Origin: Alphaproteobacteria bacterium
GTDB lineage: Bacteria; Pseudomonadota; Alphaproteobacteria; Rs-D84
Assembly: GCA_017443235.1 (NCBI GenBank)
Contig: JAFSOV010000004.1
Coordinates: 974-64,973 of the forward strand
Reading direction: 5' to 3'
DNA: 64,000 bases
The position numbers and the translations under genes were made by a program. Positions 29,021 to 38,552 of the stretch are shown piece by piece. The notes below the pieces were generated by a model, which worked only from the letters and a program-made list of their open reading frames with translations, had not been told where the DNA came from and searched no databases. The first letter of the stretch is position 1, and each line of letters starts with the position of its first letter.

Positions 29021-29097
29021 GGGGTGTTAGCTCAGCTGGTTAGAGCGTCTGCCTGTCACGCAGAAGGTCGAGGGTTCGAGCCCCTTACATCCCGCCA
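29021..29097 (+). tRNA. tRNA-Asp (GUC)
   Basis: GGGGTGTTAGCTCAGCTGGTTAGAGC..CTGTCAC..GGTTCGAGCCCCTTACATCCCGCCA cloverleaf. Confidence 0.92.
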
Positions 29098-29116: not shown

Positions 29117-29191
29117 GGCCCCATCGTCTAATGGTTAGGACACCGCCCTTTCAAGGCGAGAATCCCGGTTCAAATCCGAGTGGGGCTGCCA
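29117..29191 (+). tRNA. tRNA-Glu (UUC)
   Basis: GGCCCCATCGTCTAATGGTTAGGACACCGCCCTTTCAAGGCG..TTCAAATCC..TGGGGCTGCCA. One mismatch each in the anticodon stem and the T stem. Confidence 0.85.
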
Positions 29192-30737
29192 AATCAGAGT
29201 CACCGTCCATTTGGGCGGTGTTTTCGTTGAAAATCTGCACTGTTGAGGCGGTTCGAAATCCTGATTCTTGGTGATAGACAGGTTTTTCAGTAAAAATCAA
29301 CCTAACAAGACGTCGTTTTTGCGAAATTGTGCCGCGTGACCATAGTAAATCAGGCCTTTTGAAAAATTCGCGTCCGTTTTCAATGGCGGTTCGAAATTTT
29401 TCTGCGACATTGGATGCAGTGTTATTTTCCAATTGTTTTTCCAATGCTTGCTTGTTGGCATTTAGTTCTTTAATTTGCCCCTGGTATATGTTCGCCAAAT
29501 CTTTATCACCACTTGCCAGAGCATTCATAACCAGCGCAGTGATTCCCGATATTTGTTGTTTTATTTTTGTTATTTTATCGTGCGTCTTGTTGTTTGCGCT
29601 GGTTATTTCGTTTTCCCTAATTTTGCCTATCTTTGTAATCATGGCACAGCATAAATCAAGAAACTTGTCTGTCGCTTTTAATGTGCGCAGTTTTTCCACA
29701 AAAGCATCTTCAATAAGGTTCCTGCGTATGGATTTTTTGTGAAACACGCATTCTTTGTTATGGCACCTGTAATATGGATGCATACACCCCCTTGTTCCGC
29801 TTTTCGCGTAATAGCCGGTTAATGGATGCCCACAATGCTCACAAAACACCTCGTGTCGCAATGGAAAATCATCGGCAATAGTGGATTTATATGATTTATA
29901 ACCCCCTTTGTCTAATCTGGCTTGAACAGCATCGAACAAATCCATTGGTATCAGTTTAACCATTTTCCATTCTTGTAGTGGTATTTCCCATTTGTCATAA
30001 GCAAACACACCAGTATAAACCACATTGTGCAGGATATCATTTGCGGCTGTATCGGTTATTCTGCGACCGTTCCATGCATCATGCGAATTTAAGAAATCTG
30101 CGACCGCATGTTTGGTTGCCAATTCGCCACTGGCATATTTGGCGAATGCTTGCTGTATCAATGTGGCCTTTGGTTCGTCTGGCACCAAAATAACCTTGTT
30201 ATGTTCATCTTTTTGCCTTTTTAACCCCAATGGCGGATTTAGTGGGTAATAACCAAGTGTCATTAAAGAGCGCATAGAGGCTCTGGTCTTTTCTGATAGT
30301 TCGTCACTAAACCGTCGTGCATTTAGTATGTCTATTCCGCGCACAAAACGACCTGTGGCATTGTTCTGTGATTTTCCGGCCACGACCGTTAATAGTTCTA
30401 TATCGTATTTTATAACCAAGTTTTCAAACCGGCTAAACACCTCTAAATTGCGCGATAATCGCGACATATCAAAGAACAAGACCCTTATTCGCTTGTTTTT
30501 CTGTTCTTGGGTTATATATTCCATCATCATGTCAAGCCCCGGGCGGTCAGTTTTCCACCCAGATACCCCGTCTTCATAAAAGAACTTATCAATTATAAAT
30601 CCGTTGTTTTTCGCATAATCCAAACATGCCTGTTTTTGTGACATGATGGTTTCTTTCTTTGCTTGTTTGTCTGATGAAACACGGCACAGACACAATGTTT
30701 CAATTGGTTTTTCTTTGGTTGGTATATATTTTTTCAT
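29151..30737 (-). CDS. large serine recombinase
   Basis: 528 aa. Resolvase catalytic block LCRVSSDKQ and YEDGVSG, recombinase domain, Zn-ribbon CEHCGH..C..C, coiled-coil tail. The 3' end runs into tRNA-Glu. Confidence 0.85.
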   Translation of the reverse strand: MKKYIPTKEKPIETLCLCRVSSDKQAKKETIMSQKQACLDYAKNNGFIIDKFFYEDGVSGWKTDRPGLDMMMEYITQEQKNKRIRVLFFDMSRLSRNLEVFSRFENLVIKYDIELLTVVAGKSQNNATGRFVRGIDILNARRFSDELSEKTRASMRSLMTLGYYPLNPPLGLKRQKDEHNKVILVPDEPKATLIQQAFAKYASGELATKHAVADFLNSHDAWNGRRITDTAANDILHNVVYTGVFAYDKWEIPLQEWKMVKLIPMDLFDAVQARLDKGGYKSYKSTIADDFPLRHEVFCEHCGHPLTGYYAKSGTRGCMHPYYRCHNKECVFHKKSIRRNLIEDAFVEKLRTLKATDKFLDLCCAMITKIGKIRENEITSANNKTHDKITKIKQQISGITALVMNALASGDKDLANIYQGQIKELNANKQALEKQLENNTASNVAEKFRTAIENGREFFKRPDLLWSRGTISQKRRLVRLIFTEKPVYHQESGFRTASTVQIFNENTAQMDGDSDLAAPLGFEPGFSP

Positions 30738-30787
30738 ATTTTTTCCTTTAAGTTTTGTCCCGGATGCCGAAACACCCGGGGGTTAGT

Positions 30788-30913
30788 TTATATTTGGTCG
30801 CATATTATCCACGCATACTCTTCAATCAGTTGCAGGATTTCCTGTAATTGTTCTATTGGCATGTGCGTAGAACCTAAAATGCGCTTTGCCTCAGTGATTG
30901 ACAATAAAGCCAT
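30788..30913 (-). CDS. possible small HTH protein (excisionase/RDF candidate)
   Basis: 41-aa ORF MALLSITEAKRILGSTH... directly upstream of the recombinase. Weak RBS. Confidence 0.25.
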   Translation of the reverse strand: MALLSITEAKRILGSTHMPIEQLQEILQLIEEYAWIICDQI

Positions 30914-31039
30914 CGCAACACCTTTTTGGTTGCGTTTCGGCTCTGGTTTGTCCAGTCACTAAAACAATGTTGTTCATTTGCGCTGGTAATAATTTCGATT
31001 TGTTCGATGGTTATTTTCAGCATGTTTATATGGTGTATT

Positions 31040-31813
31040 TTATTCATACAAGACCTCCGTTGATTTGACCTCGTTAAAAACTTCGCGTCCATTTTGGTAT
31101 TTGATGGTGCGTTCCCCATAGTTTGGGCTTGTGCCACCATCTGATACTGTATGGATGCGGTTTGCTGTTTTATCAATATTCAGTTTTTTAACCCCGGGGT
31201 CATATAGTTTGCTGGCAATGTTTGTTGGTATACCCACAAATTCGCCTATGTCAGATGCGTTGATTTTTAGCACCACATCGCATTCGTTGAATATCTGCAT
31301 AGTATTCAGTATGATATGTGAATATGTGGTTATATCCGGGTCTGTAATGATGGTGTCCAGGTCGCGTTTCAAAGCCAATGTTATCCGATTTTCGCCGTCT
31401 ATAACCAAATATGGTGTTTTATCGGCATCCGGTTGTTCCAATGCTAAATTGCGACATAGTAATGTGGCGAATTCTAACACTGAACAGTTATCATACATTG
31501 GCAAATTCAATGCGTCTCGTATTTGTCTCAATGCAGACAAAGAAAGACCGCGCTTTTTTAGCACGGTCAGTACACTTAACATCGCGGCATCACGAATGGA
31601 CATTGCCTGTCCGGGTTCCACATGAATCAGCTCCCGGCTCGCCCATTCTTTTAACACATGTTGTATGTTGCCCGACAAGAAGTCGCCGATGCCAGATATA
31701 TGCCTATTAAGATTGACCAAATCAATCTGTTTGGCACCGGTTGCAAACGCATCAAAAAATGCGTTGGTTTCTTGTGATATTTTTTTGATATTTATATAAT
31801 TTGAATTTTGCAT
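31040..31813 (-). CDS. hypothetical island protein
   Basis: ATG at 31813 with RBS AAGGAG. 257 aa, no recognised motif. Confidence 0.55.
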   Translation of the reverse strand: MQNSNYINIKKISQETNAFFDAFATGAKQIDLVNLNRHISGIGDFLSGNIQHVLKEWASRELIHVEPGQAMSIRDAAMLSVLTVLKKRGLSLSALRQIRDALNLPMYDNCSVLEFATLLCRNLALEQPDADKTPYLVIDGENRITLALKRDLDTIITDPDITTYSHIILNTMQIFNECDVVLKINASDIGEFVGIPTNIASKLYDPGVKKLNIDKTANRIHTVSDGGTSPNYGERTIKYQNGREVFNEVKSTEVLYE

Positions 31814-31989
31814 GAGTTTTACTCCTTTGGTTTTCGCAAAATTCGCAACACTTGCCCACCACAAGTCATTTTGTGTCAGGATTGTTGCTCTCGTCCACTT
31901 GTCGAGTCAAGTCCGCAGACAAAAAAAGACAAAATGAACACAATAAAATTGCGCGTGGGGGATAACACATGTATGAATCGTAAAAGGGA

Positions 31990-32124
31990 AATCATAAAGG
32001 GTCGTCATAAACCCGAATCATAAAAAAATGCTCATAAAGAGCACGAGCATAATATAGTCACAATGGATAGAATGGGGGCTAATAAGAAATCAATTAACGA
32101 ATCATAAAACCCGAATCATAAATT
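31990..32124. repeat. iteron-like cluster of (A/G)TCATAAA motifs
   Basis: At least six copies. They include the long direct repeat TCATAAA(A)CCCGAATCATAAA at 32005-32024 and 32102-32122. Confidence 0.6.
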
Positions 32125-32423
32125 GTCATCTTAAAATCCTCGCAACTCCTTTGTGACTGTGGTTTTGAACGATTTTTATTGTAGTTAAAAAACGATAAAA
32201 TGTCAAGTCCTTGATGCATATTTTTTGTTTTTGTCAGTTTTCCGGTATGTTGACGTTGTTGCATTAAAGTATGAACGATTCGTAAACGGTGTTATTTTGC
32301 CTCGACATGCGATGTCTTGGTTTTGAAATAGTCAGTATGCCGAAAAACAAAACATTGCGACGTCGGGCACGACAATGCGATTGTCGCATATCAAATATAA
32401 AACCAGTGCAATTAACATATATT

Positions 32424-32680
32424 TTGACTTTTTTCCTGTTTGCGTGTAAAGTTTTTCATGAATCCAAGAGATTGGGTTCGGGGCTGTCACAAGCCCATCT
32501 CATTCGGTGCATAAGCATCGTTAAATTGTTAGCATGGCGCGTTTGCGCCGGCTTTCCCCGCATGGTCGGGGAGTCGTGGTTATACAATAGGGGTAACCCG
32601 AAACCCACGAAATCAATAATGAGATGATTGTGAACTCCCCGGCCGTCAATCTTTTGGCGGTCGATTTTATTTAACCAAAA
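32424..32680 (+). promoter_or_regulatory. type I structured leader, copy B
   Basis: TTGACT-17-TAAAGT promoter. Same conserved blocks as 9410-9660. Helix CATCTCATT/AATGAGATG replaces ACGCTAGTT/AACTAGCGT. Terminator-like CCGTCAA..TTGGCGG plus T-rich tail. Confidence 0.55.
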
Positions 32681-32688
32681 GGGAAAAT

Positions 32689-33333
32689 ATGAAAAAATTA
32701 TTGTGTGCTTTGGGCTTGCTATGTGTGTTGTGTGCATGTGACCGAAACGAAAACAAAAAGCAACAATCACCACTAGTAAAAAGTGTAATAACTTTTCGGG
32801 CTTTTCATCAGGATGTTTGCAAATGTGTTCTTGGGAATATGCCGACATTTGTTAAGACACTTAATTCAGACGGGTATAATAATATCAATGCTTTTTGTTT
32901 TTGGGGTGCATATTTTTGTTCAAACCAAAAATCAGACGAAACCATTATGGCCGCTGCTAAAGTCATTGACGGTTTAGACAGTTTCCAATGCGCCGATCCG
33001 CACTTTAATGAAAGGTTTGTTGCGGCCAGTGAAAAGGCAGGGGTCGATGCTTTGTGTCCCGCTATATGGCAACAAGATAATGTTTTGTATTTAAGCAAAT
33101 TGGCGCATTTAACAAATTCGTGTCAGTCAACATTTGGTAAAAGCGAAATCGAATGTTTGTGTGCGGTTGATAATTATATGTCGCATTTGTCTGAAGCCGA
33201 ATTCAAAGCATTAAAAAGTTATGGGCAATTCTTTCCTGGTTATGGGTGGATGGCGAATACCAAAGCAAAACAACAAATGACCGTCAGCATAATGACAAAA
33301 ATGCGAAATGCGGTTGCGGCATGTGCAGAATAA
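32689..33333 (+). CDS. cysteine-rich lipoprotein, unknown function
   Basis: Signal peptide with lipobox VLCAC. 214 aa. Confidence 0.6.
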   Translation: MKKLLCALGLLCVLCACDRNENKKQQSPLVKSVITFRAFHQDVCKCVLGNMPTFVKTLNSDGYNNINAFCFWGAYFCSNQKSDETIMAAAKVIDGLDSFQCADPHFNERFVAASEKAGVDALCPAIWQQDNVLYLSKLAHLTNSCQSTFGKSEIECLCAVDNYMSHLSEAEFKALKSYGQFFPGYGWMANTKAKQQMTVSIMTKMRNAVAACAE

Positions 33334-33350
33334 AAACAAAGGAGTAAAAA

Positions 33351-34154
33351 ATGAAAAAATATATTTTGTTCACAATAGGTTCCGTCTCATTGGCGGCATG
33401 TCAGTTTGACGGGATTAGCCCAGAGCAATGCAATGATTATGTTAATTCACTAACAAGCTCTGGAGATATAATTCAAGTTTTAGATACATATATTGAATAT
33501 AGAGATTGGTGGAAATCTTCTAATGATGCTAAAACTCAACAATCTCTGCAAAGAAGTTGTTGGAACGATTTTTTAAGAAGACAAGATATAGATTATACAT
33601 GTTTGGATAAAGACAATGTTTCAGATGAATGTATTTTATATCGTCGAAATAATAAATACGAATCAGAATTTAATTTTTACGATTTTACAAAGTTTTTATC
33701 GCAAGATAGTTATATAAAAAATGAAACAGATTTTAAGATGGCTCTAGAATACTATGAAATAAACATAAGGAAATGTGAAGCACTTATTGAAAAAACCAGT
33801 GTAGAGAAAGAAGATTGTGTAAATAATATCAAAGACGATTTGCGTAATTTTTCTAAACATGGGATGTTGCTGTGTAGAAACAGTCTAAAAAAAGAATATA
33901 GAGCCATGTTAAAAGAGCAAGGTCAGTGGTATAGGTGGGCAATAAACCATGATCCGTATGGGTTTTATAAAGAATGGGTCGCGATGACCGGTATTTCGGG
34001 ATATGAAGCCCAAGTATCCATGTATCAACCCGTATATAGCAAAAGTTCCGCCGCAGAAAGGGTAAAAGAAGAAATTGAAAGCTGGGGTAAAGAACATTTG
34101 TGCAAAACTACAAACTATTTGACAGATCTAAAAACATTAGGCTTTTATATGTGA
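33351..34154 (+). CDS. lipoprotein, unknown function
   Basis: Signal peptide with lipobox SLAAC, RBS AAGGAG. Very AT-rich. Confidence 0.6.
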   Translation: MKKYILFTIGSVSLAACQFDGISPEQCNDYVNSLTSSGDIIQVLDTYIEYRDWWKSSNDAKTQQSLQRSCWNDFLRRQDIDYTCLDKDNVSDECILYRRNNKYESEFNFYDFTKFLSQDSYIKNETDFKMALEYYEINIRKCEALIEKTSVEKEDCVNNIKDDLRNFSKHGMLLCRNSLKKEYRAMLKEQGQWYRWAINHDPYGFYKEWVAMTGISGYEAQVSMYQPVYSKSSAAERVKEEIESWGKEHLCKTTNYLTDLKTLGFYM

Positions 34155-34187
34155 CGGAACTGTATAACGGAAAAACAGGAGACAGAA

Positions 34188-34292
34188 ATGGAAAAGATTA
34201 TACTAAAAACACTGAAACGGGTATTAGTTTTGATTGGGTTGATATTACCATTGATAATAATGATAGCGATGATAAACGCATTACTTAAATAA
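34188..34292 (+). CDS. possible 34-aa hydrophobic peptide
   Basis: RBS AGGAGA. MEKIILKTLKRVLVLIGLILPLIIMIAMINALLK is a single TM helix. Confidence 0.3.
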   Translation: MEKIILKTLKRVLVLIGLILPLIIMIAMINALLK

Positions 34293-34497
34293 TGAGGCCG
34301 CCCATGATAAAAACACTAGTAGTATTATCAATGATGCAAGGGAATCTTAATATAGCCCCTTCGTTAAGAGAAATGGAACACCAATTCGTTGGGTATGGAT
34401 GCACGGATATGTATGTATTTAGAACAATTTACCATTACCCATACATATATCCTATCAGTTTATTTAATTTAGGCCACTAAACAAAAAGGAGAAAACA

Positions 34498-34944
34498 ATG
34501 TTGCAAACTGAACGCTCGTGTATGCGCGAAACCGAAAGAACTTTATTGCGTTCTAAATTGGTATCATTGGCGGACGACATTGATTTTACAGGTCAAAAGC
34601 CGCACAAGGCACAGTTTAGGGGCAGATTATTTGAATTTACCCGTGCAAATGGTTGGAAACGGTTGTATGAACAAATAGTTGGTGAATTATACAAGATAAA
34701 TCCAAAACTTTTACAAGATTCAGCCGATGGACAAACTGAATTCATCATATCAGATGAACCGGTTTTATGGAGCGTAGGCAGTCGAGGACCAGCGCAGACA
34801 TATGATGATTCATGGTGGACACCCATAGATGATAATATTTATATATACACAAAACATAATACAAACAAGAAAATCGAACTTATGCGCCGTTTTTTTGACA
34901 TGTATGGCATAGAGTATGCAGAATTAAAAATTTTATTGTATTAA
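34498..34944 (+). CDS. hypothetical protein, upstream partner of the nuclease gene
   Basis: 148-aa ORF with RBS AAGGAGAA. Ends 8 nt before the next gene. Confidence 0.55.
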   Translation: MLQTERSCMRETERTLLRSKLVSLADDIDFTGQKPHKAQFRGRLFEFTRANGWKRLYEQIVGELYKINPKLLQDSADGQTEFIISDEPVLWSVGSRGPAQTYDDSWWTPIDDNIYIYTKHNTNKKIELMRRFFDMYGIEYAELKILLY

Positions 34945-34952
34945 AGGGGAAA

Positions 34953-35882
34953 ATGATGGGGGTTATTGTTTTGATACTGGTTTTAATTGGTATATTTGTT
35001 TGGATATTGATGGTAGAAGAAAAAAAGAAAGGGATATATATACAACAAGAGCAAATGGTAAAGGAGGAATTATTAAAAGAATTTAGGCTTTCATATGTCG
35101 AACATATAATAGATATAACCAGAAAATATCAAGATGTATTAATAGATAAATGGGACCAAAAAACTTACATAAATGAATGGGGCGATCTTGATGCGGCTGA
35201 TTTTTTTAAAGAACTTGAGTATTTTATATTTAACAAAATTCGAAGAATATATGATTATACAAAGTCACCAGAATATAAAAAATTAAAGGAAAACGCTGTG
35301 TCTGAATATGAGTATTTTGCTTTTGATATAGTGCCGAATGAAAGCAATATACCGGAATGTGCGGGCTACGACGGTGAACGAATTAACTATCATTTTCATT
35401 TTACTATGAAAGATAATCAGGAAAAACGATATTTGGCTTCTTGGTATGATACAACCGTTGATATAATATGTGTTTTTATAGACACTATTAGATGGCTTGA
35501 ATCTGTTGTTGGCACAAAAAAGAAAATAACTATAAGTTTACAGTCCAAAAATCCATTGGATTATGAAAAACAAATTGCCAACAAGTTAAAACAATCTGGG
35601 TTCAATGCGCATGCAACAAAAGGTTCGGGCGATCAGGGGGCAGATGTTCTGGCAGATAAGAATGGTGTAAAGTTTGCTATACAGTGCAAAATGTATTCAA
35701 AGCCGGTTGGTAATAAAGCCGTTCAAGAGGCCAACACCGCCCGTGATTTTTACAAGTGTGATTATGCGGTTGTTGTCACTAATGCGGGATATACAAAATC
35801 TGCACGCCAAGCCGCAAATGCGTGCAATGTTATCCTGTTGAACGAAAACCAATTGGATAAATTAGACAATTATATAGAATAA
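34953..35882 (+). CDS. membrane-anchored protein with a C-terminal Mrr-type restriction endonuclease domain
   Basis: N-terminal TM helix. The C-terminal block GSGDQGADVLADKNGVKFAIQCKMYSKPVGNKAVQE..VVVTNAGYT is typical of Mrr_cat (D..D..QCK). Confidence 0.7.
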   Translation: MMGVIVLILVLIGIFVWILMVEEKKKGIYIQQEQMVKEELLKEFRLSYVEHIIDITRKYQDVLIDKWDQKTYINEWGDLDAADFFKELEYFIFNKIRRIYDYTKSPEYKKLKENAVSEYEYFAFDIVPNESNIPECAGYDGERINYHFHFTMKDNQEKRYLASWYDTTVDIICVFIDTIRWLESVVGTKKKITISLQSKNPLDYEKQIANKLKQSGFNAHATKGSGDQGADVLADKNGVKFAIQCKMYSKPVGNKAVQEANTARDFYKCDYAVVVTNAGYTKSARQAANACNVILLNENQLDKLDNYIE

Positions 35883-36511
35883 CTGTACTTATCCCCCCCA
35901 CCCCCCTATGGGGGTAGTGCTTGAATTGTGCGATATATATCAAAGAATGCTTTTCTTTACATGGCATGCCATTAAGTTATGGTTCACGTTATGGGTATTA
36001 TCTTAACCTTTATATCCCATCTATACCCTTGTTATCATCCCTGGTTAGAATATCGTTCTGGATTATATTTATTTGGTTTTGTGGGGTTTGCGTTTGTGTG
36101 TGTTTGTATCGGGCATAAAGTGCAAAATCAACATCCATTAGGGATTCTGCGATATTTATAGTTTGCTCAATAAACCGGTTCAAATTTGTAAGGTCTTGGG
36201 CTGCCAAAATAAAAAGACCACCATTTTGGTGGTCGTTTTATTTTGTTCAACCCCCGAATTTGAACCGCGGTTCACAATGAGTAAGCGAAAACGAACGAAG
36301 CGAAGTTTGAGCGCCCGGGCCCCGCAAAATTGTAAAATTTTGTGGGTGGGCTTACGAATGCCCCGCAGGCGCAAGCCGAGGGAAATCCGAGTGGGACAAT
36401 TACGAAAATCTTAAAAAATCGACAGATGGAGATTTTTTTGATTTTCGTTATTGGGGATGTCCGTTCTTGACGAGTTTTTATAGATTTTTATTATTGTGTA
36501 TTGAGGAAGCG

Positions 36512-36526
36512 GTGGGGCTGCCAAAT
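36512..36526 (+). repeat. attR-like copy of the tRNA-Glu 3' end
   Basis: GTGGGGCTGCCAAAT is identical to 29180-29194. Shorter fragments: GGGCTGCCAAA at 36198-36208 and AAATCCGAGTGGG at 36383-36395. Confidence 0.65.
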
Positions 36527-36698
36527 TTAGTTAATAAAAAACGCCGAATGGCGTTTTTTATTTAGGAAATTTGAGCATCGCGCCGTAGCTACCCACGTTT
36601 TCCGAACCCAAACCACATAAATCGATTTTTTATTCAACGCGATTAAGCACCTGCGAAGGCGGATGCCAAGAATTCAAACCGACCTTTTTGGTCGGTTT

Positions 36699-38207: not shown

Positions 38208-38552
38208 CTATTTAGTTTTTTTATTTTGTGCCAATAACTCGGTACGTCTTGCATTGCACGCACGTACAAAATCTCTGTAATCTTTTGGTGTTATAACAAA
38301 CCGATAGAATTCATCACCATTGTTTGCAATTGAATAAACATTATGCGTGTACGAATATACCGCATAGATATCACCAACAACCCATTTTATATGACGTTTA
38401 CGAAACGGACCATCGGTTTCATCTTCTATGGCATCCATCTGTTTGGCCACCGTAGATACTGAGATTAGATTCATCAAATTTTGAACACGTGCCTGATATT
38501 GCTGTTTAATTCTTACTTCGTTTTGTTTTTCCCTTGATGATTTTTTTGCCAT
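38208..38552 (-). CDS. hypothetical protein
   Basis: 114-aa ORF followed by the terminator hairpin CCACCC-GAAT-GGGTGG. Confidence 0.5.
   Translation of the reverse strand: MAKKSSREKQNEVRIKQQYQARVQNLMNLISVSTVAKQMDAIEDETDGPFRKRHIKWVVGDIYAVYSYTHNVYSIANNGDEFYRFVITPKDYRDFVRACNARRTELLAQNKKTK

Follow-up and report, generated by a model that had tools for sequence, protein, structure and literature searches.

In the window, the whole stretch of 64,000 nucleotides that was analysed, a pair of tRNA genes is followed by a mobile element whose gene for a large serine recombinase (LSR) runs into the second tRNA gene from the opposite strand. The features of the locus are as follows.

29021-29097, plus strand: tRNA-Asp(GUC), first gene of the tRNA-Asp/tRNA-Glu pair (ARAGORN; Rfam, 68 bits)
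29117-29191, plus strand: tRNA-Glu(UUC), the integration target (ARAGORN; Rfam, 55 bits)
29151-30737, minus strand: large serine recombinase, integrated form, 528 aa (Pfam, PHROG, fold match, homolog C-termini)
29183-29193, plus strand: attL core, GGGCTGCCA plus AA, the 11-bp repeat GGGCTGCCAAA
29201-29228, plus strand: intrinsic-terminator-like hairpin CACCGTCCATTTGGGCGGTG followed by TTTTCGTT (folding energy, covariation)
30874-31047, minus strand: 57-aa ORF between the 257-aa and LSR genes (gene calls)
31040-31813, minus strand: conserved 257-aa partner protein, first in the 257-aa/57-aa/LSR operon
31977-32122, plus strand: six iteron-like repeats RTCRTAAA (TTTATGAT on the operon strand)
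32689-35882, plus strand: variable cargo (two putative lipoproteins, small ORFs, a 148-aa protein, an Mrr-like nuclease)
34498-34944, plus strand: the 148-aa cargo protein
34953-35882, plus strand: membrane-anchored Mrr-like nuclease (Mrr_cat)
36010-36207, minus strand: detached 3' 'tail exon' of the LSR gene (homology to tails of other elements)
36198-36208, plus strand: attR core, GGGCTGCCA plus AA, true distal end of the LSR element
36216-36245, plus strand: terminator found directly 3' of tRNA-Glu in empty-site relatives, displaced 7 kb by the insertion
36246-36511, no strand assigned: integrase-less modules from older insertions (relatives' sequences; inverted repeat I16)
36512-36526, plus strand: outer 15-bp copy of the tRNA-Glu 3' end, displaced fragment of an older event

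The recombinase and its neighbours

The domains and fold of the 528-aa protein confirm the initial annotation, which had assigned it to the large serine and not to the tyrosine recombinases. Pfam domains were found for Resolvase (PF00239, 2.8e-20, residues 17-156), Recombinase (PF07508) and Zn_ribbon_recom (PF13408), and the PHROG match is to an integrase (2e-67). In Foldseek searches the AlphaFold model was observed to match full-length serine integrases (9dxh, 9iu2 and 9rah), with the SPbeta-type 9dxh first (E 7e-19) and then Bxb1 and PhiC31, while sequence identity to solved LSRs is 12-17%. Residues R19, V20, S21 and Q25 of the catalytic motif (R-x-S...Q) are invariant in 26 sequences, the zinc-ribbon cysteines C299, C302, C325 and C330 are also invariant, and long helices span 357-408 and 412-438 in the AF2 model. 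The arrangement of Resolvase, Recombinase and a zinc ribbon with coiled coil is that of Bxb1, PhiC31, SPbeta SprA and Listeria A118/LI, and the RVS..Q motif, the four zinc-ribbon cysteines and the full-length fold are shared with the canonical large serine integrases. A feature absent from the initial annotation is that the LSR ORF overlaps tRNA-Glu in antisense by 41 nt, where its TGA stop overlaps the anticodon; antisense tRNA-Glu encodes residues 516-528 (LAAPLGFEPGFSP) and this stop.

The conserved module of the element consists of the 257-aa, 57-aa and LSR genes together with the iteron-bearing promoter region. The 257-aa gene is conserved in 10 elements; a Pfam domain was found in none of the 26 homologs checked, and the AF2 model of the protein (pLDDT 81) gave no PDB match. 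The 57-aa ORF is conserved across the family (37-93% identity) and its product, which gave no Pfam and no family match, is a candidate directionality factor or regulator. Excision by large serine integrases needs a separate recombination directionality factor, and a search for one among these two conserved neighbours yielded no family or fold match. The six RTCRTAAA iterons, conserved in 10 related elements, are flanked on one side by a strong promoter-like site (minus strand, 32206-32178) and on the other by the 257-aa gene; this putative iteron region is probably an operator.

The iterons had been noted earlier along with lipoproteins and a nuclease, and these too were found: two proteins have lipoprotein-like N-termini (LCAC at 32689-33333 and LAAC at 33351-34154) and Mrr_cat was matched at 34953-35882 (6.7e-23). 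Close relatives (L059, L062 and L021) carry different cargo. With the PADLOC models only the Mrr-like nuclease domain was matched (ZorD nuclease domain 3.9e-17, PDC-S02) and no complete anti-phage system was found in the cargo. PHROG matches within the element are limited to the integrase and a restriction endonuclease. A phage or prophage was considered and rejected, there being no virion structural, packaging or lysis genes and no relatives in viral contigs; the IMG/VR viral contigs gave neither the tail-exon pattern nor an LSR relative. The GC content is 0.378 in the element, 0.35 in the cargo, 0.461 in the left flank, 0.421 in the right flank and 0.427 in the whole window. The island is therefore richer in AT than its flanks overall, as had been claimed, but on the right the difference is only modest.

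Boundaries of the element and scars beyond it

Integration at the 3' end of tRNA-Glu was confirmed. The insertion leaves the tRNA intact, and the gene in the window is 100% identical to that of the empty-site contigs L028, L036 and L049. The initial annotation had bounded a 7.3-kb island by a 15-bp direct repeat, GTGGGGCTGCCAAAT, which is exact and has exactly two copies on the same strand (29180-29194 and 36512-36526), where about 1e-4 exact second copies of a 15-mer are expected in 64 kb. Two additional tRNA-Glu fragments are present as described, namely GGGCTGCCAAA at 36198-36208, which is identical to 29183-29193, and AAATCCGAGTGGG at 36383-36395, which matches 29173-29185. The 15-bp repeat is not the attachment site of the serine integrase: the LSR element stops at the inner 11-bp repeat, 7,015 bp from attL to attR, and the 7.3-kb interval is composite.

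The conserved core is the 9-bp GGGCTGCCA, the final 9 nt of tRNA-Glu including CCA (29183-29191 and 36198-36206). In 12 species the proximal junction was observed to run from the LSR 3' end through TGGCAGCCC to the tRNA and the distal junction from an unrelated host hairpin through TGGCAGCCC to the tail exon, with the core bases alone common to both. In addition, in at least 10 metagenome contigs an intact tRNA-Glu leads into AAAATAAAAAGACCACC, corresponding to the window from 36206 onward (89% over 93 nt in L039, 86% over 141 nt in L038 and 79% over 282 nt in L028). The comparison with island-free relatives that had been proposed also yielded one contig, L044, in which the tRNA joins the sequence after 36526 and the two matches overlap by exactly the 15-bp repeat, as expected of the empty site that had been predicted. 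All long same-species contigs retrieved carry the element, and the empty sites come from relatives and not from the same strain.

Large serine integrases act on attP and attB sites of about 40-50 bp with a central 2-bp overlap and require no host factors. Because junction identity is limited to 9 bp in the 12 species, we infer that strand exchange takes place within GGGCTGCCA, presumably as a 2-bp exchange by the LSR, and a short common core between attachment sites is a further likeness to the canonical enzymes. The long, tyrosine-style repeat beside a serine enzyme had been presented as an anomaly; since the LSR element ends at the inner repeat and the more distal bases are older scars, this anomaly disappears.

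Positions 36209-36526 lie outside the LSR element; they contain no integrase and are the scars of earlier, unrelated insertions. Modules of this segment were found downstream of tRNA-Glu in many relatives without an LSR; as an example, 36470-36525 is 100% identical to L027:2120-2175, where no LSR is present. The older modules at 36246-36511 include an inverted T-arm-like piece (36255-36273) as well as the fragment AAATCCGAGTGGG, and the ancestral terminator after the outer 15-bp copy lies at about 36534-36561. The earlier suggestion of serial insertions at tRNA-Glu is borne out by these remains.

The integrase gene spans attP and embeds a terminator

The crossover lies inside the integrase coding sequence, as in the Mx8 and SSV types, and the LSR gene spans attP. 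After virtual excision the LSR ORF continues in frame as LAAQDLTNLNRFIEQTINIAESLMDVDFALY and so on, giving a reconstructed protein of 580 aa. In frame after the distal core come 36-66 aa which are homologous across elements, and the tail exon of the window is homologous to the tails of P0023, P0027 and 12 other elements. In tandem arrays the upstream LSR reads into the tail of the next element (P0023, 563 aa, on a 512-kb contig). Melainabacteria elements, whose LSRs are about 26% identical, share this layout and its codon phase; convincing reconstruction of the tail is limited to the Enterousia-type family, the Melainabacteria group and L101. The dN/dS of the tail is about 0.1-0.4, and dS is 0.31 and dN 0.03 between the window and L021. 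As the integrase gene crosses the joining site, insertion swaps the tail of the enzyme for antisense tRNA sequence. AlphaFold gave the tail helix a pLDDT of about 60 with packing that is not trustworthy, and a function of the tail is therefore without structural support. A circular junction of the element was sought and none was found, and contig L127 (7.3 kb, with a full-length LSR) is not demonstrably circular; excision probably still occurs.

The terminator-like hairpin begins 10 nt past the tRNA CCA, within the LSR codons TAQMDGD of the opposite strand. Over 48 loci the mean folding energy of the hairpin was -13.5 against -4.5 for controls (p 7e-23), and in the covariation analysis 97.9% of cells were paired, with double changes in four of the eight pairs. 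The predicted hairpin and T-run are a replacement terminator for the tRNA operon.

A tRNA or tmRNA convergent with the LSR 3' end was observed at 52 of 68 GTDB loci from several phyla, and in 38 cases it is tRNA-Glu. Antisense T-arm motifs occur in the last 30 aa of 90 of the 134 full-length family representatives, compared with 1% of internal windows. At 50% identity the family falls into at least several hundred clusters; it occurs in gut Alphaproteobacteria, candidate-phyla-radiation bacteria, Melainabacteria, Gammaproteobacteria and marine Alphaproteobacteria and is a serine integrase clade specialised on tRNA 3' ends. Textbooks and databases assign insertion into tRNA genes to tyrosine integrases and insertion into protein-coding genes to serine integrases (PMC4383910, PMC7168690), and a 2014 survey states that no serine integrase is known to target tRNAs. 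We found no published account of this group in the literature, and it is apparently a large, undescribed group of tRNA-targeting serine integrases.

Mechanism and relation to known integrases

The best explanation of the locus, with a probability of roughly 0.8, is a 7,015-bp LSR-driven element at the 3' end of tRNA-Glu with an ORF across attP and an embedded terminator. Positions 29192-36208 would then be an integrative element whose host, an alphaproteobacterium of gut or rumen, is related to Candidatus Enterousia; the LSR would have inserted it at the extreme 3' end of tRNA-Glu(UUC) through exchange within the 9-bp core. Since these same 9-11 bp are present in attP, the tRNA would be kept intact and a short direct repeat formed. 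The LSR gene of the excised circle is predicted to encode the 580-aa enzyme with a conserved amphipathic C-terminal helix. Integration would cut the gene at codon 516 and fuse it to antisense tRNA-Glu to give 528 aa, where the tRNA would supply the last 13 residues and the stop (TGA in the anticodon loop), and the helix-coding exon would be stranded at the far end of the element. The final element-encoded codons of the LSR would form the hairpin and T-run on the tRNA strand, replacing the native terminator of the tRNA operon which the insertion would have pushed 7 kb off.

As attP lies inside the gene, integration would reversibly trade the conserved C-terminal helix for an antisense-tRNA tail. 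That this swap tunes the activity or directionality of the integrase is possible, with the odds somewhat against it. A wider reading, in which a multi-phylum clade acts at tRNA and tmRNA 3' ends, recombination is a switch on the C-terminus and the same codons give the terminator, is tentative and on the whole rather doubtful. There is close to an even chance that the position of attP at the gene's 3' end is accidental, with both C-termini tolerated and no regulation by the swap; the tail helix would then have a general role in the free form only. The low AlphaFold confidence for the tail and its widely varying length and sequence across the clade are consistent with such a neutral overlap, as is the established unidirectionality of serine integrases even without such a device (PMC3783163), whereas purifying selection on the tail, a junction position and codon phase conserved across phyla, and the altered behaviour of the Mx8 integrase after an analogous swap (PMC6070905) argue against it.

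An immobile fossil of the same architecture, with an integrase truncated on integration ('suicidal', SSV-like) and a tail kept by recent shared ancestry, is improbable. Every ORF of the core module is intact, as is the tail exon, the junction leaves untouched the catalytic and DNA-binding domains, which lie upstream of it, synonymous change is in excess in the tail between diverged elements, and the same module occupies the same site with different cargo in close relatives. In favour of a fossil, neither a circular form nor a same-strain empty site was found, the relatives L020, L059 and L065 show how common decayed and tandem remnants are, and SSV-type integrases are known to split themselves upon integration (PMC7253208). 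A single 7.3-kb island (29195-36526) mobilised whole by the LSR is very unlikely, as the exact 15-bp repeat and the L044 junction are outweighed by the LSR elements of other species that end at the core equivalent to 36198-36206 amid unrelated flanks, by the many contigs that continue from an intact tRNA-Glu into 36206 onward, by the LSR-free module in L027 and by the sequence beside the 15-bp copy, which gives no homologous LSR tail ('LAAPPLPQYTI...').

The LSR-driven element differs from the canonical large serine integrases in its target, which is the last 9 nt of a tRNA and not a protein-coding or intergenic site, in an attP inside the integrase ORF, in a coding sequence which embeds the terminator of the target gene and in having no relatives in the viral contig collection. 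It shares with classical tRNA islands the Islander signature of an island between a full tRNA gene (29117-29191) and a displaced 3' fragment (36198-36208) with an integrase gene between them, and in both, elements accumulate in tandem and decay at a single tRNA; the 15-bp and 13-bp fragments farther out in the window resemble the scars of such islands. However, classical islands have a tyrosine integrase whereas the LSR is the sole recombinase in 29192-36526, where a search for a tyrosine recombinase found none, and the repeat here is just 9-11 bp at the extreme 3' end.

Myxophage Mx8 has its attB sites at the 3' ends of tRNA-Asp genes. The Mx8 tyrosine recombinase has attP within the int coding sequence, and integration (intP to intX) yields a recombinant gene, its 3' end new, whose enzyme is altered and not abolished (PMC6070905; PMC4383910). 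The likeness lies in an attP within the integrase gene and a 3' end rewritten by integration, but the enzyme family and chemistry are unrelated, Mx8 is a single phage and not a multi-phylum clade, and it is not known to have an embedded terminator. The SSV-type integrases of archaeal viruses and plasmids are also tyrosine recombinases with the recombination site in the ORF and insertion into tRNA genes (PMC7253208; PMC4383910), and they resemble the LSR in both respects. Their gene is split into two inactive parts, whereas here about the last 65 residues are exchanged and the catalytic and DNA-binding domains all remain intact in an enzyme of another family.

The family runs against the rule that assigns tRNA genes to tyrosine integrases and protein-coding genes to serine integrases. 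Island finders that require a tyrosine integrase will overlook these elements, and many family proteins in databases end in translated antisense tRNA. Serine integrases are prized in genome engineering because short sites suffice and no host factors are needed; organisms without engineered landing sites could be reached through the near-universal, highly conserved tRNA 3' end by enzymes aimed at it. The terminator within a coding sequence is a clean case of dual-function DNA. If the C-terminus is indeed rewritten by the enzyme's own reaction, it would be a natural counterpart of engineered integrase-RDF fusions (PMC5737554) and possibly a new kind of directionality control.

The tRNA-Glu locus and the ends of the element

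A large serine recombinase (LSR) gene was found to extend 41 nt antisense into tRNA-Glu, which the initial annotation had overlooked, and its stop codon, TGA, is the complement of the anticodon-loop TCA of that tRNA. The features involved are listed here.

Features of the tRNA-Glu locus
29021-29097: tRNA-Asp (ARAGORN and Rfam)
29117-29191: tRNA-Glu(UUC) (ARAGORN and Rfam)
29151-30737, minus strand: complete LSR of 528 aa with Resolvase, Recombinase and Zn_ribbon_recom domains
30874-31047, minus strand: 57-aa protein, constant LSR companion in the element family
31040-31813, minus strand: 257-aa protein, constant LSR companion in the element family
29180-29194 and 36512-36526: exact copies of the 15-bp repeat GTGGGGCTGCCAAAT

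The tRNA-Glu, the recombinase and the exact repeat, all noted initially, were confirmed by ARAGORN and Rfam, domain and exact-match searches respectively, and a nuclease (Mrr_cat), two lipoprotein-like genes, iterons and a lower GC (0.378 in the element against 0.42-0.46 outside) were each present as described. The LSR matches an integrase in PHROG (2e-67), and in a fold comparison its AlphaFold model aligns along its whole length with SPbeta-type, Bxb1 and PhiC31 integrases. The original interpretation, an island bounded by the 15-bp repeat, is only partly supported, and the point of interest moves from this repeat to the architecture of the integrase. The tRNA-Glu also has a C-A mismatch at positions 27-43 and another in the T stem; these were not caused by the insertion because contigs L028, L036 and L049, which have the empty site, carry this tRNA at 100% identity.

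Metagenome contigs were pattern-scanned for tRNA-Glu with an intact 3' end running into sequence other than the island, which gave 32 loci. In ten of these, the intact tRNA-Glu is followed by AAAATAAAAAGACCACC...GGTGGTCGTTTTATTTTG and then by TTCAACCCCCGGATTTGAACC, which corresponds to the window from 36206 onward (89% over 93 nt in L039, 86% over 141 nt in L038 and 79% over 282 nt in L028). The ten contigs are empty sites for an element whose end is 36198-36208. LSR homologs from 12 other species have the same two junctions as the window, where the proximal one runs from the LSR 3' end through TGGCAGCCC into the antisense tRNA and the distal one from a host terminator hairpin whose sequence is unrelated through TGGCAGCCC into conserved sequence. 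Only 9 bp, GGGCTGCCA (tRNA positions 68-76), are always common to both junctions and therefore the exchange must lie inside them. These comparisons show the boundaries and the 9-bp core; in the window, 11 bp are identical between the junctions, and the element measures 7,015 bp. Either placement of the crossover dinucleotide fits the T/C core variant in contig L020, and inspection by eye gave no convincing dyad symmetry in attP or attB. A scan of the genome collection for two predicted empty sites returned no matches, and the Lgt-side contigs stop within the multi-copy tRNA-Asp and are uninformative for the boundary.

A junction at ~36416 with a 5-bp AAATC core was first suspected because seven Logan contigs all stop at 36416, and it was rejected, such an empty site being absent from both collections. 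These short metagenome contigs carry a YjbR gene, end exactly at 36416 and each come from a different sample. The exact Mrr nuclease protein was absent from the samples and no alternative sequence left of 36416 was recovered there. The strains in these samples must differ left of 36416, and the break is probably strain or module variation.

The integrase gene at attP and its embedded terminator

About 30 LSR homologs (46-94% identity) are of near-equal length, and the C-terminus of each is LAAPLGFEPGFSP, LAAPTRFELVFSP or similar, the product of translating the local tRNA-Glu antisense. Two homologs, P0023 and P0027, run on as LAVQIELN.NQII...DADFALY... instead. The contig of P0023 (512 kb) holds two tandem elements beside tRNA-Glu, and the reading frame of the upstream LSR passes through the junction and enters the beginning of the element that follows. 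In the window, the LSR frame was observed to continue for 65 codons from the distal core on the minus strand, from 36207 down to 36010, as LAAQDLTNLNRFIEQTINIAESLMDVDFALY..., and joining the ends gives a 580-aa protein. In 12 related elements, too, the distal core leads in frame into a homologous tail. The dN/dS of the tail is ~0.1-0.4 (window against L021, a related element: dS 0.31, dN 0.03) and therefore the tail is translated and is more than a binding site. Furthermore, elements of Melainabacteria, which belong to a different phylum and where the LSRs are only ~26% identical, have the same layout with an unchanged codon phase; their core TGGTACCCC corresponds to the final 9 nt of the local tRNA-Glu, and their tail is related to the window type (MVPHIEKNSKQIVLELYQLYEL against LAAHIEKNANQIIDQIIKIAELL). 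These alignments show an open reading frame across attP and purifying selection on the tail.

On the LSR strand, the attP junction of the excised form is predicted to read ...ATGGACGGTGACTCTGATTTGGCAGCCCAAGACCTTACAAATTTGAACCGG..., and the attB repaired after excision would read ...AAATCCGAGTGGGGCTGCCAAAATAAAAAGACCACCATTTTGG.... From the known mechanism of the family, the short sites would be recombined at a 2-bp overlap and excision would need a directionality factor. Among candidates for the excised circle, contig L127 had no terminal overlap, and neither the tail-exon pattern nor LSR relatives were found in a viral contig collection. The AlphaFold model of the 580-aa form is confident in the body, with the tail helix at only ~pLDDT 60 and its packing unreadable. 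A reversible swap of the C-terminus might alter the activity or directionality of the integrase, a tentative reading to which we give a probability of roughly 0.4. A precedent for such a swap is Mx8, where attP also lies within int but the enzyme is of the tyrosine type (PMC6070905), and SSV-type integrases split themselves entirely (PMC7253208).

The same gene contains a terminator. Ten nucleotides past the CCA on the tRNA strand, CACCGTCCATTTGGGCGGTG and then TTTTCGTT lie within the LSR codons TAQMDGD. Folding of the 42 nt past the tRNA gave a mean dG of -13.5 kcal/mol over 48 loci that cover all phyla, against -4.5 for 573 control windows in the same genes (Mann-Whitney p 7e-23), and a T-run follows nearly all the hairpins. 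Within the close family, pairing in this helix amounts to 97.9%, with two-sided changes in four of eight pairs, and slid controls are 32-51% paired. One of the helix pairs, U-G when read on the tRNA strand, is mismatched as C-A on the LSR strand. The L020 peptide has ALASG in place of AQMDG, and the hairpin pairing is retained. These observations show an embedded terminator. A native terminator occupies the equivalent place in empty sites, and the simplest reading is that the element would supply a replacement terminator for the invaded operon.

Conserved parts, companion genes and integrase-less modules

The conserved module comprises 29111 to ~32400-32700 together with 35893-36239, and the cargo between these parts varies among close relatives. 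Both companion genes are upstream of the LSR gene. The AlphaFold model of the 257-aa companion has a pLDDT of 81; no match was found for it in a PDB fold search (best E-value 0.25) or in Pfam, PHROG and PADLOC, and the 57-aa companion was likewise without a family or fold match. The iterons, TTTATGAT(TCG), have the 257-aa gene on one side and a strong promoter-like site on the other; they are conserved in ten elements, and we infer that they act as an operator. In addition, 32564-32652 (plus strand) gave a hit to sRNA-Xcc1 (RF02221) that stays below threshold (43 bits, gathering score 53, E 3.8e-5), has a terminator-like hairpin (32640-32663) at its end, just upstream of the first lipoprotein gene, and lies within the part of the element kept in loci L059 and L062.

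Contig L044 joins the tRNA directly to the sequence after 36526 (85% over 190 nt) and the two matches share exactly the 15 bp as overlap; therefore 36209-36511 is likewise inserted sequence when compared with a more ancestral arrangement. These 303 bp are a mosaic of short modules. Every module combines a terminator hairpin with 12-30 nt from the 3' end of tRNA-Glu and with a piece (TTCAACCCCCGGATTTGAACCGG) that resembles an inverted T-arm. Such arrays downstream of tRNA-Glu (window 36209-36526; L027:740-2480; L029, L037, L041, L045, L051, L053, L056 and L058) recur in many relatives with no integrase nearby, and 36470-36525 is 100% identical to L027:2120-2175. Given the L044 join and these LSR-free modules, the 15-bp repeat marks an older event and is not the LSR attachment site it was first taken for, and the initial suggestion of serial, decayed integrations at tRNA-Glu proved right. 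A reading of the modules at 36209-36511 as decayed ends of LSR elements was rejected: their tRNA-type continuation past the core and the lack of tail homology speak against it. Some modules carry a cargo gene, such as a PNP_UDP_1 phosphorylase (L027:1098-1859).

Tandem and partly deleted LSR elements at one tRNA are common (L020:4876, L059:4762/6748, L065:1761/4667/5878 and L101:6256) and therefore the tRNA-proximal junction of a resident element is reusable by an incoming one. Beyond the element, 38500-41202 is AT-rich (GC ~0.32-0.34), holds two Phage_lysozyme-family genes (38973-39833 and ~40301-40813) and adjoins tRNA-Leu(UAG) at 41118-41202 (minus strand); it may be another island or a remnant.

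Breadth of the clade

Scanning GTDB with one genome per species gave 68 LSR loci, 64 with sequence past the gene. In 52 of these 64, the 3' end of the LSR gene adjoins or runs into a tRNA or tmRNA of convergent orientation; 38 of the 52 are tRNA-Glu, and the others comprise Thr, Arg, Met, His, Ala, Ser, Pro, Asn and a single tmRNA. At tRNA-Glu the LSR stop always lies 39-41 nt into the tRNA. Searching 1.84 billion representatives exhaustively and without a profile returned 347 clusters at E <= 1e-30. Among 134 full-length top hits, 90 have an antisense T-arm motif (GIEP, GFEP, GLEP, RFEL or similar) in the last 30 residues, against only 1% in internal windows, and about a dozen others have helical tails after an (M/L)-V-(E/D) junction, as excised or tandem forms should show. 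These counts show a clade-wide link of the LSRs with tRNAs. A tmRNA gene adjoins one Saccharibacteria locus (L113).

We found no description of tRNA-targeting serine integrases or of this clade in the literature; absence of a report is unproven because the coverage was incomplete, and island databases may list members. In a streptococcal survey, the enzymes at tRNAs were of the tyrosine type and those in protein-coding genes of the serine type (PMC7168690), and a large LSR survey never mentions tRNA. Distant clade members were observed in cultured marine Alphaproteobacteria at other tRNAs (L077, L082 and L092), namely Notoacmeibacter marinus XMTR2A4 at tRNA-Thr, Ahrensia marina ac1 at tRNA-Met and Roseivivax isoporae LMG 25204 at tRNA-Ser, and these strains are usable as experimental hosts. 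Within an ordinary enzyme family, these integrases stand out by their unusual class of target, by an attP located in the integrase gene itself and by a coding sequence with a dual use.
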